Source of the DNA: Candidatus Saccharibacteria bacterium UBA5170
GTDB taxonomy: Bacteria; Patescibacteriota; Saccharimonadia; Saccharimonadales; Saccharimonadaceae
Assembly: GCA_002413425.1 (NCBI GenBank)
Contig: DHWY01000003.1
Location: 17,693 to 81,692 of the forward strand
Direction: 5' to 3'
Length of the DNA: 64,000 nucleotides
Each line of letters starts with the position of its first letter. Within the stretch, counting starts at the first letter, position 1. Below, piece after piece: positions 15,656-18,685 of the stretch. The translations under genes and the position numbers were made by a program. Under the pieces are notes generated by a model that saw only the letters and a program-made list of their open reading frames with translations, was not told the DNA's origin and made no database searches.

Positions 15656-18112
15656 TTACTGGACGGTTGTGGTGAACGACATACCCTGGTAAGGGATTAA
15701 GTCATAGCCATCGATAGCTAATGAGAATTGTTCTGTATAAATACCGGCTGTATCGGGGGCTTTCCATGTGAAGTCAAACTCTCCAACTTGGCCAGGGTTT
15801 ACGGATGGAGTTTGCATCCGAATTTGATTAGTCGTCCCCAGCCAATTTGGGTCACTAGGATTCGCAAAGCGCGACTGCCGATACCATGGGTTGTACATAA
15901 GGACGCGTGCTGCACCCCCGTGGAATACACCTGGGGTGTTTCCATCGGCGTACCATATAGTATTGGAATTATTTTTTATCATTAGTTTACCTGTAGCAAT
16001 CTGCCCTCGAGACATCACGCCAGGTGGGTTAATTGTTCCGACAACAGTTGTATAACTATAATTTTTAGGAGCGATAGTTATATCTTTTCCAACAAAAGGG
16101 CTGGAGAAATATACTCCGTCTAATGCGAACCGTAATTCAGTGAAAGAAACAGATGAATCATAAGATGCGACAAAGGGTATGTCAAATTCACCAATAGCAC
16201 CAGGCGCTACAGAGATACCCGCAAGCTTAACTTGATTCTTTGTGCCTAGCCAAGCTGGATCTGTAGATTCTGCAAGGGGGTTATTCCTGTAGCCGGACAT
16301 CATGAGGCGAACCGGACTTACTCCGACGGGGGTATTTCCATCGGAGTACCACGTGGCAGACCCGGTGTTTTTAAGCTGTATTTTAGCGACGTAGCGCTGA
16401 CCAGGTATCATCTGAGAGGGTATGTCCGTTGACGTTACTGAAAAGAGGTAAGCCTGAGATTCCGAAGTGATTGTGAGAGGAACGGATGGGGGGAGGGGGG
16501 TCGCGCCGTCGAGTACTAATCCAAAACTAGTTGTTTGTTGTCCTGGTGTACCTGGAGCACGAATGGAAAACTGGAAGTTTGCGGTGTCACCGGGGTTGAT
16601 AGGATTACCCTGTAGACCAATTTGATTGTTGGCAAGCCAAGTTGCAGAGTCATAAAAAGGAGAGGCACTATAGCTTGGATTGAGCGTATAAAGTCGCATC
16701 GCTGCTGCGCCAGTCGGGTGATTATTCTCGGTGTACCAAACGACATTACCGGTATTTTTGATTTGATAGCTAACCGAAGTCGCAAGGTCGGTAGGTAGGG
16801 TTGCTGGCACTGGGGTTTGGCTTACCACTGAGTAGCTATAGTTTGGGGAGGGGGTGTTAACGCCCCAAGACATACCGATACTAGCGTAAAAATGAACACC
16901 GTCTAATACGGGCGCGAAACTCATCGCATAATTGTTAACTGCTTGCAAGGGTCCCCTGAGGGTCGCGGTAAAGGTTGCTATTTGACCATTTGCGACACTT
17001 GATTGGTCCATTCTGATTTGATTTTTTGTTCCTAACCATGCAGGATCTGCGGTATTGGCAAAAGGTGAATCTGTATAACCAAGCATTCCTAGGCGTGTTG
17101 GATGTTCTCCGTTCGGTACGTTTCCGTCTGAATACCACGTCACCCCCGATTGGTTAACAAGTGAAACTTGAACGGAATAGACCTGGTTGGGAAGCAGGGT
17201 AGACGGTGGGTTTGTAGCCCCCGCAAACGCGTACCCTGGACCAATAGTGCTGCCAAACCAGTCTGTAAAGTATAGGAAGAAGTTACGATTACCATAGGCC
17301 CCACAGCTATCACCTATTCCGTAGCCAGCATTTAGAGCTGACTGGTTTGGTTGGTATGGCGTGTAATTATATAATGCCTGAGTTGAGCGGTTGACAATAT
17401 TTACGGTTGTACCGCCACATGAGGTATTAGGGTTATATTGGATGTAGTTATTGCCAAGTATATAGGGTGTATACCAGTTGGGGTTGTTGACAATAATAGC
17501 GTGGAACATAGTACCCGACCACGTCAACTGATTGGTTAGTCCGAAATATTGGCTATCGCAAGCTGCGGTGTCTGGACAGCCATAACCAGTAGCTGTTCTA
17601 TACTGTGACGGTAACGGCCATGAGTCCGTAACGAGACCTTGTTCTTTTTGCAACAATACAATTAAGACTTGGGGGTTAATCTGATATTTTTGGGCAACGT
17701 TATAGATAATTTGAGCAGAGCCTAGGCCATTCTCTGTGTAGTCTTTTAGGCAAGGGTATGGAGGTGCGGGCCACCCGACCAGAGCGGCATACTGTGCATG
17801 AGTAAGGTCCGGGCGACCGAAATCAGATGCGGGCTGTGTACCATTAGTATCGCATGATGGTACCTTGCTATTGAGGAAGGTCTGAATCTGACTGACATTC
17901 ATCGAAGTATTGTTTGTAAATACACTATCGTCAATAATATGCCCGGCGTTAAACCCAACTACTGGACTAGCGTGGGTAGTATCAACCACCATACTCGACA
18001 TGACAAAGAGAGTTCCGAGGAATAAGGCTAAGTACAAAACGTAACGACTACCTCCCATTGCCGCTGAAGAGTGTTGGTGTTTTGTCGTAGTGTTTATTAT
18101 AGTCTCGTTCAT
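15656..18112 (-). CDS. Large secreted/anchored protein: Cys-rich N-terminal domain plus four tandem ~130-aa beta-rich repeats
   Basis: 818 aa. N-terminal hydrophobic segment YVLYLALFLGTLFVMSSMVV. Conserved-looking domain aa ~50-290 (INPQVLIVLLQKEQGLVTDSW...YGCPDTAACDSQYFG). Repeats at aa ~293-422, 423-552, 553-683 and 684-818, each with a T/V-WY..GN.P...RL...NP...WLGTKNQI...PG..F.F core. Confidence 0.7.
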   Translation of the reverse strand: MNETIINTTTKHQHSSAAMGGSRYVLYLALFLGTLFVMSSMVVDTTHASPVVGFNAGHIIDDSVFTNNTSMNVSQIQTFLNSKVPSCDTNGTQPASDFGRPDLTHAQYAALVGWPAPPYPCLKDYTENGLGSAQIIYNVAQKYQINPQVLIVLLQKEQGLVTDSWPLPSQYRTATGYGCPDTAACDSQYFGLTNQLTWSGTMFHAIIVNNPNWYTPYILGNNYIQYNPNTSCGGTTVNIVNRSTQALYNYTPYQPNQSALNAGYGIGDSCGAYGNRNFFLYFTDWFGSTIGPGYAFAGATNPPSTLLPNQVYSVQVSLVNQSGVTWYSDGNVPNGEHPTRLGMLGYTDSPFANTADPAWLGTKNQIRMDQSSVANGQIATFTATLRGPLQAVNNYAMSFAPVLDGVHFYASIGMSWGVNTPSPNYSYSVVSQTPVPATLPTDLATSVSYQIKNTGNVVWYTENNHPTGAAAMRLYTLNPSYSASPFYDSATWLANNQIGLQGNPINPGDTANFQFSIRAPGTPGQQTTSFGLVLDGATPLPPSVPLTITSESQAYLFSVTSTDIPSQMIPGQRYVAKIQLKNTGSATWYSDGNTPVGVSPVRLMMSGYRNNPLAESTDPAWLGTKNQVKLAGISVAPGAIGEFDIPFVASYDSSVSFTELRFALDGVYFSSPFVGKDITIAPKNYSYTTVVGTINPPGVMSRGQIATGKLMIKNNSNTIWYADGNTPGVFHGGAARVLMYNPWYRQSRFANPSDPNWLGTTNQIRMQTPSVNPGQVGEFDFTWKAPDTAGIYTEQFSLAIDGYDLIPYQGMSFTTTVQ

Positions 18113-18118
18113 AATGGC

Positions 18119-18685
18119 TTACTGTAATGTTATGGTTTTAGTTGCAGATCCTGTGAGTGTGGAGCTGTCATAGGTAATAAGCGCTTGCCACGCTCCGGTG
18201 GACAATTCAGACGTTGGTACGTCAAAACCTTTGCAGGTTGAGGTGCTCGCAAGTGCTTGCGTATCAGCGGTTTTTATGACAGTAGGCTGTCCCGCGCGCG
18301 TGAGAGTAAGGGTACATGTCCCCGTATTTTCAACAGCGCTTATAAGTACTCTAATTTGCAGGGTTGAACCATTTTGATTTGCGGCTGTAACTGTCACTTG
18401 AACGTTTTTCTTTGTACTGCCAGTTATTGGTGTTGGGGCGGGCGGAGTATCGCTTGAGTTGGTTGAACCTGATTTAATCTGAGAGCCAGACTTCTGCTGT
18501 TCGGAAGTTGCAGGCCCATAATTAACTGAGCCATTGCCACTAGGCGAGTTTGTGGGTGATTTCCAGCCGAATAGGTTACCATTAAAAACATACACATAAG
18601 TCAGGGCCCCTGCGACTAATAATACTGCTATGCTACTGGCAATAATTAGCTTTTTTGAAAATCTTTTTTTTGAATTAATAATCAT
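18119..18685 (-). CDS. Membrane-anchored S/T/P-rich protein with C-terminal beta domain (unknown function)
   Basis: 188 aa. N-terminal TM (LIIASSIAVLLVAGALTYVYV), low-complexity SGS/TP linker, two Cys in the C-terminal domain. 6 nt upstream of the 818-aa gene. Confidence 0.6.
   Translation of the reverse strand: MIINSKKRFSKKLIIASSIAVLLVAGALTYVYVFNGNLFGWKSPTNSPSGNGSVNYGPATSEQQKSGSQIKSGSTNSSDTPPAPTPITGSTKKNVQVTVTAANQNGSTLQIRVLISAVENTGTCTLTLTRAGQPTVIKTADTQALASTSTCKGFDVPTSELSTGAWQALITYDSSTLTGSATKTITLQ

Follow-up and report, generated by a model that had tools for sequence, protein, structure and literature searches.

A predicted lysozyme-like secreted protein and its membrane-anchored partner in a glycan locus of Saccharibacteria

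Introduction

Modular wall hydrolases with a binding tail are a known kind of protein. In the choline-binding proteins LytA and LytB, in proteins with SLH modules (which recognise the CsaB-pyruvylated secondary cell wall polymer) and in the CWB2 proteins of Clostridioides difficile (which recognise PSII), a constant catalytic module is combined with a module that binds, non-covalently and specifically, the secondary wall polymer of the producer, and in some wall-polymer-anchored autolysin systems the genes lie beside those for polymer synthesis. We know of no description, for the choline-binding, SLH or CWB2 systems, of tails being exchanged as part of a glycan cassette. Here, we analyzed an 818-residue protein and its 188-residue partner, encoded by adjacent genes in a 64,000-nucleotide stretch of Candidatus Saccharibacteria bacterium UBA5170 (contig DHWY01000003.1; the whole stretch is referred to as the window), whose genome comprises 780 kb and is 98% complete. 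We consider it rather probable that the larger protein is a modular enzyme of the cell wall, exported by the Sec route, with a lysozyme-superfamily head that would cleave peptidoglycan and a tail that would sit on the wall polysaccharide of the producer itself.

The closest described counterparts are those of Southlakia epibionticum. There, SEML1_0889, modelled with a GT-C/STT3-like fold, SEML1_0890 (588 nt), with an immunoglobulin (Ig)/FN3 fold at residues 96–195, and SEML1_0891 (1698 nt) have downstream of them a double glycosyltransferase family 2 (GT2) gene and genes for an ATP-binding cassette (ABC) ATPase and an ABC permease (PMC10633639, Wang et al. 2023, Cell). In SEML1_0891, residues 21–65 and 91–265 were assigned to the ECOD group "Lysozyme-like" (template e6fxpB1, SagB; DPAM probability 0.929), and this N-terminal domain is followed by a 7-bladed propeller with PF13517 at 404–470 (PMC10633639). 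SEML1_0890 and SEML1_0891 were both scored GD/ES/ES, i.e., essential, by transposon sequencing (Tn-seq) in co-culture, as were the flanking GT2 and ABC genes (PMC10633639). In the main text of that study, the treatment of SEML1_0891 and SEML1_0890 is confined to their VCBS and FN3 domains, with the speculation that host glycans are targeted (PMC10633639); no further paper in the library searched mentions either gene. Since the tables for S. epibionticum already flag the probable orthologue as lysozyme-like and essential, the present finding extends and explains an existing lead and is not unprecedented.

Results

The head of the 818-residue protein resembles lysozyme-superfamily enzymes

The first-pass annotation, made from the sequence alone, had reported the 818- and 188-residue proteins as same-strand open reading frames (ORFs) separated by 6 nt, with the partner upstream. 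Both ORFs were confirmed (Table 1), and the motifs quoted for the larger one (INPQVLIVLLQKEQGLVTDSW, YGCPDTAACDSQYFG, SCGG and DSCGAYGNRNFF) were all located in its translation. The N-terminal domain, hereafter the head, had been called Cys-rich. All six cysteines of the protein (residues 87, 121, 179, 185, 232 and 270) do cluster there, but with six conserved Cys per approximately 250 residues the wording is generous. The head is the most conserved portion of a large family (more than 6296 proteins at E ≤ 0.001 among 8000 candidates scored), and its identity reaches 78% in proteins with unrelated tails (B_lectin, DUF5648, FG-GAP or unannotated). It had no match in Pfam, in NCBIfam, in the PDB by phmmer or in the PDB with a profile built from 40 homologues. 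This putative catalytic family is thus absent from the curated libraries searched, and no described member of it was found.

An AlphaFold2 model of the head, built from a 40-sequence alignment, reached a predicted local distance difference test score (pLDDT) of 91.3 and a predicted template modelling score (pTM) of 0.83. When it was compared by Foldseek with the PDB and BFVD, nearly all of the top 20–50 neighbours were enzymes of the lysozyme superfamily, as the first-pass annotation would lead one to expect, though none of the matches was significant. These neighbours included members of glycoside hydrolase family 73 (GH73; AtlE, 4pi7, with a probability of 0.93; LytB; SagB; Acp), goose-type lysozymes and lytic transglycosylases, together with phage transglycosylases and phage glucosaminidases. 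A GT51-type transglycosylase was also considered for the head and rejected, as no GT51 structure was present among the neighbours.

Profile comparisons were performed with hhalign, using GH73 and soluble lytic transglycosylase (SLT) domains gathered from Patescibacteria genomes, with column-shuffled and reversed profiles as controls. The head scored 34.7 against GH73 (P = 2e-4; maximum of 13.8 for shuffled and 12.9 for reversed profiles) and 28.5 against SLT (P = 1.3e-3; 22.2 and 15.1, respectively). The accepted relationship between GH73 and SLT scored 36.8 (P = 3.7e-5) and was aligned at the same helix-Glu motif. In both comparisons made with the head, Glu157 fell on the catalytic Glu of the family, i.e., that of "ESG" in GH73 and of "ES" in SLT.

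The residues K156-E157 are invariant in 40 close homologues (alignment A1) and in 20 distant ones from other Patescibacteria lineages (alignment A2). The motif reads LLQKEQG in the window protein, TLQKEQSLI in the consensus of the distant homologues and LQKES in actinobacterial homologues, and in the AlphaFold2 model E157 is placed at the C-terminal end of a helix. The likeness of the QKEQGL segment to muramidase or glucosaminidase catalytic regions, suggested in the first-pass annotation, was therefore supported by this K-E invariance, the helix-end position of E157, the structural neighbours and the hhalign scores above controls. The head also has the invariant stretch T-x-x-L-Y-x-Y-T-P (residues 244–252) and D181; the hhalign alignment to GH73 stopped short of this region.

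Regarding the two best-known relatives, GH73 (PF01832; Staphylococcus aureus AtlE and SagB, Streptococcus pneumoniae LytB) provides the best structural neighbours (4pi7, 7pj4 and 6fxp) and an alignable helix-Glu motif, and consists of modular autolysins with repeats that bind wall polymers. However, PF01832 did not match the window protein at E ≤ 1 or the 40 homologues at E ≤ 10, and the TM-scores were 0.27–0.35. In addition, the head comprises ~250 residues, probably holds three disulfides and has additional elements at both termini; its motif is KEQG or KES instead of ESG, and the YATD-type motif of GH73 was not recognisable in it. With GH23/SLT (PF01464), the hhalign alignment covered 75 columns, with E157 on the Glu of "ES" and AtGYG on GLMQ. 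Like lytic transglycosylases, the head has a single invariant acidic residue, and many of its Foldseek neighbours belong to GH23. Nevertheless, it has no PF01464 match and differs in size and disulfide pattern; the E-S pair of SLT occurs in distant Candidate Phyla Radiation (CPR) homologues (KEQS) and actinobacterial ones (KES), whereas the window head has E-Q-G. Judging from sequence and model, the head is best described as a putative third, unannotated branch of the lysozyme superfamily that belongs to neither GH73 nor GH23.

Fusion partners and distribution of the head

In distant Patescibacteria, the head was found fused to Peptidase_S11, a D-Ala-D-Ala carboxypeptidase domain (L027 and L033; 81–101 bits), and to PG_binding_1 (L030 and L019; 49–89 bits). 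In the first case, which concerns another Patescibacteria family, a single secreted protein of ~740 residues (L027:1807-4011:+ and L033:1810-4029:+) would bring together a glycosidase and a DD-carboxypeptidase, an unusual combination. A third architecture, with the head N-terminal to NlpC/P60, was found in at least 437 proteins of ~450 residues, whose named sources are Nakamurella endophytica, Actinomycetota and Limnocylindrales (Chloroflexota). The N. endophytica protein (P0317) carries a full head with LQKES ahead of NlpC/P60 (36% identity over 244 residues, E = 7e-37), and another member (L112) is encoded in an ordinary chromosomal context, outside glycan loci. Proteins of this type (P0241–P0360) are annotated merely as "cell wall-associated NlpC family hydrolase". 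Because every informative fusion partner is peptidoglycan-specific, these fusions provide the strongest indirect argument for peptidoglycan as the substrate of the head.

The same arrangement was encountered on a phage-like contig (L111, IMGVR_UViG_3300046837_000409; 59–65% GC) with genes for a large terminase, a portal and head morphogenesis. Its end-truncated ORF (L103:2-973:+) encodes a lysozyme-like head core, 43% identical to the window head (E = 3e-25), followed by NlpC/P60 (39.8 bits; cut-off 23), and the core retains QKE, GCPD, CGG, LYxYTPYQPN and GDSCxxYGNRNFF. Judged by its sequence, the product resembles a lysin with two domains or a hydrolase associated with the phage tail, and the host would be of high GC. 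Tblastn searches of the 50,697 deposited phage genomes of INPHARED with the window head or the phage-contig version gave no match, and a second scan of IMG/VR for the head returned the same single contig only. The head-NlpC/P60 layout of these actinobacterial and phage relatives presumably recalls the CwlT-type bifunctional lysins of conjugative elements and phages. The window protein differs from these in having no NlpC/P60 domain, and no CwlT entry was present among the top 50 Foldseek matches of the head.

The head was detected in 105 of the 301 Patescibacteria genomes sampled and in 190 of 251 Saccharimonadia genomes, including 71 of the 76 from the family to which the window belongs, usually as one candidate copy. 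The window genome itself has no GH73, SLT, GH25 or RlpA-type domain. Across the phylum sample, GH73 is rare (10/301 over cut-off), and SLT is common (122/301) but scarce in Saccharimonadia. Within the order of the window, G186 lacks the head but encodes GH73 within a large ORF (630–836 residues, stop to stop), which may be a functional replacement, and G087 lacks the head, GH73 and SLT.

The N-terminus is a probable signal peptide

The N-terminus of the 818-residue protein had been read as a hydrophobic anchor. A hydrophobic segment is indeed present, and it is the only one in the protein (residues 24–46), but an anchoring role is less likely than that of a cleavable signal peptide. The N-termini of homologues show a cleavage-site pattern (...VSA|T or ...AQA|F) ahead of a conserved FNPxxIISD, and in distant homologues from Patescibacteria FNPNxIISD comes after a cleavable signal peptide. 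Since this motif aligns with GFNAGHIIDD in the window protein, the comparison suggests a signal peptide and not an anchor, with cleavage probably after THA48. Translation may start at M1, 6 nt past the stop codon of the partner, or at M19; both retain the signal segment, and no clear Shine-Dalgarno sequence precedes either of them. The database cluster P0001 (778 residues, 100% identical) begins at Met41 (region 17990–18112, minus strand). A start at Met41 would delete the whole hydrophobic signal segment, and the public gene call is therefore probably too short.

The tail consists of four ancient NBR1-type repeats

The C-terminal 514 residues form four tandem units of ~127 residues. In line with the first-pass annotation, the units are homologous to one another (30–47% identity in pairs; Smith-Waterman z of 14–41 with 200 shuffles), with repeats 1 and 3 as the closest pair at 47% identity; head versus repeat, used as a control, gave z < 0. 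A self-BLASTP of the 818-residue protein returned the identity match only. Their proposed NBR1-type, Ig-like nature was also confirmed, as Pfam PF16158 (N_BRCA1_IG) matched with 46.6 bits (cut-off 28) over two stretches and was present in 26 of the 40 aligned homologues (best E, 6.8e-28); the human NBR1 structure 4ole gave a weak profile match in the PDB (E = 1.1).

With regard to the age of the duplications, Tandem Repeats Finder detected no tandem repeat at the DNA level. Each repeat scored 250–400 by Smith-Waterman against the same-numbered repeats of five homologues, compared to 115–222 against its own sister repeats. Since the same-numbered match exceeds the sister match and no DNA-level repeat is left, the four-fold duplication is ancient and older than the split of these lineages. 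The repeats most likely constitute a carbohydrate-binding tail, as far as can be read from their sequence.

The 188-residue partner is conserved upstream of the head

The partner belongs to a family conserved in Saccharibacteria (178 homologues) for which no Pfam match was found. It comprises a Lys-rich cytoplasmic stub, a transmembrane helix (residues ~11–33, within a hydrophobic segment at 9–36) with a conserved YVYAFNGNLFGW, a variable S/T/P linker, a conserved helix (INYxPAT.EQ..AG), an SDTPPAPTP linker and a C-terminal domain (residues ~95–188). The latter was modelled by AlphaFold2 as an Ig-like beta-sandwich (pLDDT > 90) with invariant C124 and C151, and its Foldseek neighbours were Ig-like and carbohydrate-binding-module-like sandwiches, none of them significant. 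In 8 of the 11 closer loci, and in every public contig examined, the gene immediately preceding the head gene upstream encodes a partner, regardless of the tail type. Both the pairing with a small anchored protein and the placement inside a glycan locus, reported before for the window only, are hence conserved across genera.

The gene order also matches that of S. epibionticum: a GT-C-like protein, an Ig-like protein of ~190 residues, the lysozyme-like head protein, a double GT2, Wzt and Wzm. In contrast, SEML1_0891 ends in a 7-bladed FG-GAP/VCBS propeller and the window protein in four NBR1-type repeats. Two complete genomes of the same family, G439 and G487, encode a 565-residue head protein with PF13517 at 406–472 in the S. 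epibionticum gene order. The head of G439 is 61% identical to that of the window (E = 3e-113), and its upstream ORF matches the partner (E = 3e-25). Intergenic spacing in G439 differs from the published coordinates of S. epibionticum, and it is hence another strain. Based on these indirect comparisons, the window pair is very likely orthologous to SEML1_0890 and SEML1_0891.

Tail type co-varies with the neighbouring glycosyltransferase genes

In the loci compared, each tail type was accompanied by its own set of neighbours. The four-repeat NBR1 tail (window, L107 and L108) was found with a GT2, a double GT2, a further GT2, a methyltransferase gene and Wzt/Wzm, with rml genes nearby. B_lectin tails (L098, L104, L105 and L106) occurred with ManC, two GT1/GT4 and GDP-sugar enzymes, without rmlA and rmlC; the DUF5648 tail (L096) with DUF6020, WbsX and RgpF; and an unannotated 805-residue tail (L109) with WsaF, GT2 and RgpF. 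That is, the four-repeat tail was found with the GT2 set in 3/3 loci and B_lectin with ManC and two GT1/GT4 in 4/4. Tails were classed by crude Pfam and length labels, and single-linkage clustering merged most types through the shared NBR1 domain.

Identity to the window differed sharply along the locus. The close relative L096 shares 93% identity in RmlA, 77% in the partner and 77% in the head, and there is no homology in either the tail or the downstream GT2 genes. The more distant L107 and L108 share only 70% and 81% (RmlA), 33% and 38% (partner) and 51% and 68% (head), respectively, and nevertheless have homologous tails (49% and 46%) and homologous downstream GT2 genes (43–60%). One boundary of the variable part of the glycan locus thus lies inside the head gene, at the head-tail junction. 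Base composition marks no breakpoint at this junction (GC of 0.451 in the head and 0.459–0.495 in the repeats) and gives no support either way. Between loci of differing sugar chemistry (rml/GT2, ManC/GT4 and RgpF/WsaF), head identity is 74–80%, and this constancy argues that the substrate of the head is invariant and that the ligand of the tail varies with the locus. In a tree of 119 heads, tail types were polyphyletic: the tail labels need 45 changes, compared to a minimum of 8, and even if only well-supported branches are counted, no fewer than 5 changes are required for B_lectin and no fewer than 10 for the four-repeat NBR1 tail.

The slot upstream of the partner is occupied by a DUF6056 protein in the window, for which no homologue was found in the compared loci, and by DUF2142, DUF7657 plus DUF7654, or DUF6020 in L096, L099 and L107–L109. 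This polytopic protein appears to be another serotype-specific component.

Three further observations were made in these loci. The B_lectin-type locus L098 contains a Fic/VbhA toxin-antitoxin-like pair and a type-IV-pilin-like protein with discoidin (F5_F8_type_C) at 2377–3183. In L106, the gene that directly follows the head gene, in convergent orientation (11987–14158, minus strand), codes for another large secreted protein, which carries FG-GAP and B_lectin signatures. Finally, an ORF at 21163–21969 (minus strand) of the window interrupts the rml genes; it gave a sub-threshold match to Replic_Relax (20.7 bits; cut-off 25.3) and is missing from L096, where the rml genes are contiguous.

Table 1. 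Positions in the window of the gene pair, its domains and the adjacent genes.
Feature	Coordinates	Strand	Basis or remark
818-residue modular secreted protein	15656..18112	-	ORF; stop codon 15656-15658; single copy in its genome
188-residue partner, predicted type-II membrane protein with Ig-like ectodomain	18119..18685	-	ORF, alignment, AlphaFold2
Probable N-terminal signal peptide region, residues 1-48	17969..18112	-	Hydropathy and signal-peptide-bearing homologues
Head, residues 49-295, lysozyme-like, predicted catalytic, six conserved Cys	17228..17968	-	AlphaFold2, Foldseek, hhalign
Q155-K156-E157-Q158-G159 with proposed catalytic Glu157, end of helix 147-158	17636..17650	-	Conservation, hhalign
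NBR1-type Ig-like repeat 1, residues 305-432	16817..17200	-	Pfam, Smith-Waterman; orthologous to repeat 1 of homologues
NBR1-type Ig-like repeat 2, residues 433-558	16439..16816	-	Smith-Waterman within the protein and against homologues
NBR1-type Ig-like repeat 3, residues 559-685	16058..16438	-	Smith-Waterman within the protein and against homologues
NBR1-type Ig-like repeat 4, residues 686-818	15659..16057	-	Best Pfam stretch at residues 741-799
Polytopic DUF6056 (GT-C-like) membrane protein, upstream	18805..20205	-	Pfam, 77.9 bits
GT2 (341 residues), double GT2 (613 residues) and GT2 (305 residues), downstream block	11865..15638	-	Pfam; identity to L107/L108

Discussion

In the mechanism that we propose, the 818-residue protein would be exported by the Sec route and its head would cut the glycan strands of peptidoglycan, with Glu157 acting as the general acid. 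The four NBR1-type repeats would bind the wall polysaccharide produced by the adjacent GT2 genes and exporter, so that the enzyme would be retained on the wall of the producer, by analogy with the choline-binding, SLH and CWB2 modules of Gram-positive autolysins. As the tail follows the adjacent glycosyltransferase set in inheritance, with the head and the partner remaining constant, it is the cell's own wall polysaccharide that the tail most likely binds. The tails of this family (NBR1-Ig, B_lectin, DUF5648 and FG-GAP) are unrelated to the Gram-positive modules. The membrane-anchored Ig-like partner from the same operon would probably position or restrain the enzyme near the membrane. The parallel with SagB-SpdC would be functional only, as SpdC-type partners are polytopic and CAAX-protease-like, whereas the window partner is single-pass with an Ig-like ectodomain.

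A further step can be proposed only tentatively. The tail of what would be an essential peptidoglycan-cleaving enzyme might belong to a horizontally exchanged "serotype" cassette, in which one recombination event swaps the glycosyltransferases together with the matching tail, and the partner might form a complex with the head and control the site of cutting. Recombination between the conserved head and partner on one side and the conserved exporter and rml genes on the other would then keep the autolysin matched to the current wall polysaccharide.

Several points weigh against a peptidoglycan-cleaving enzyme held on its own wall. No curated Pfam hidden Markov model matched the head even at E ≤ 10 over the 40 aligned homologues; the best Foldseek E-values were 0.13 (PDB) and 0.015 (BFVD), with TM-scores of 0.2–0.35, and the hhalign probabilities were only 47% for GH73 and 18% for SLT. 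No second catalytic carboxylate is evident in the head, whose putative active site has one invariant carboxylate. N-acetylglucosaminidase, muramidase and lytic transglycosylase activity would all suit the sequence. We also rejected the idea that the protein is the sole enzyme of its genome cleaving glycan strands, as MltG/YceG is encoded too. Further, the co-variation of tails and glycosyltransferases rests on ~10 loci that are not fully independent, and physical linkage alone, with a recombination breakpoint between head and tail, could explain it; the head tree came from a quick IQ-TREE search, with the N3 and N4 tail labels set by length. Orthology to SEML1_0891 was deduced through the relative G439 and not from the published sequence, and essentiality by Tn-seq in co-culture is compatible with a role on the producer's own wall and with one in host attack.

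The first-pass annotation had proposed a polymer-binding, polymer-processing or host-surface-binding enzyme, which was too broad to be wrong; its parts deserve separate consideration. An enzyme for host attack, with a head that breaks down host peptidoglycan where the epibiont is attached to the actinobacterium, allowing it to feed, and tails that recognise host glycans and contribute to host range, seems unlikely to us. The authors of the S. epibionticum study did speculate that SEML1_0891 and SEML1_0890 target host-cell glycans, and found the counterpart genes essential in co-culture (PMC10633639). The tails vary strongly and resemble lectins (B_lectin, FG-GAP and DUF5648), and the relatives of the head in Actinomycetota and on the 59–65% GC phage-like contig would mean that the domain works on walls of the actinobacterial type. 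However, host recognition in Nanosynbacter has been experimentally ascribed to the pilus adhesins PilX1 and PilX2 (10.64898/2026.10.06.756255), and the tail co-varies with the glycosyltransferase set of the producer and is located within its own wall-glycan locus in every genus examined. The gene is also single-copy, near-universal and housekeeping-like, and in distant homologues from CPR the head shares one protein with a D-Ala-D-Ala carboxypeptidase, typically a maturation enzyme of the cell's own wall.

The head might instead cleave the polymer of the locus or its linkage unit, trimming chains or freeing the polymer from its lipid carrier, and the tail would provide specificity. Chitinases and chitosanases, which degrade beta-1,4 hexosamine polymers other than peptidoglycan, also belong to the lysozyme superfamily. 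The gene has a conserved position in an ABC-transporter-dependent glycan locus, beside a GT-C-like membrane protein. In S. epibionticum, the GT2 and ABC genes on its flank are essential as well (PMC10633639). We nevertheless regard this function as quite improbable: a head conserved at 74–80% across loci of different sugar chemistry argues for an invariant substrate, the informative fusions (S11, PG_binding_1 and NlpC/P60) are all peptidoglycan-specific, and the actinobacterial members are located outside glycan loci. As for a non-catalytic adhesin or scaffold, in which the head would be an inactive lysozyme-like binding module of a structural surface component, neither the lack of a significant match between the head and any characterized enzyme nor the single invariant carboxylate in the putative active site brings us to consider it anything but very improbable. 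Lytic transglycosylases need no more than one catalytic Glu, the K-E motif is invariant all the way from CPR homologues to those of Actinomycetota, down to 36% head identity, and active lysins are typically the proteins in which such a domain is repeatedly joined to another catalytic domain that degrades the wall. A peptidoglycan glycosidase retained on the wall of its producer is thus the function that we favour for the 818-residue protein.

With respect to known modular wall hydrolases, what is new here is the uncurated catalytic family, the conserved operon partner and the tail as part of an exchangeable glycan cassette. The head is spread over about three quarters of the Saccharimonadia and one third of the Patescibacteria sampled, and occurs in addition in Actinomycetota, Chloroflexota and a phage-like element, so that naming it would annotate thousands of proteins now called "hypothetical" or known by their NlpC domain only, and would add a branch to the lysozyme superfamily. 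It could also provide a new lysin scaffold for walls of the actinobacterial type. S. epibionticum is the only Saccharibacterium with genome-wide Tn-seq, and both probable orthologues are essential there but unexplained; a peptidoglycan glycosidase with a membrane partner would give them a testable function, which bears on how ultrasmall epibionts build or breach walls. A tail that travels with the glycan cassette offers a way to tell binding to the own wall from binding to the host and, if this is true, would represent a new principle by which ultrasmall epibiotic bacteria couple the diversification of their surface glycans to the growth of the cell wall.

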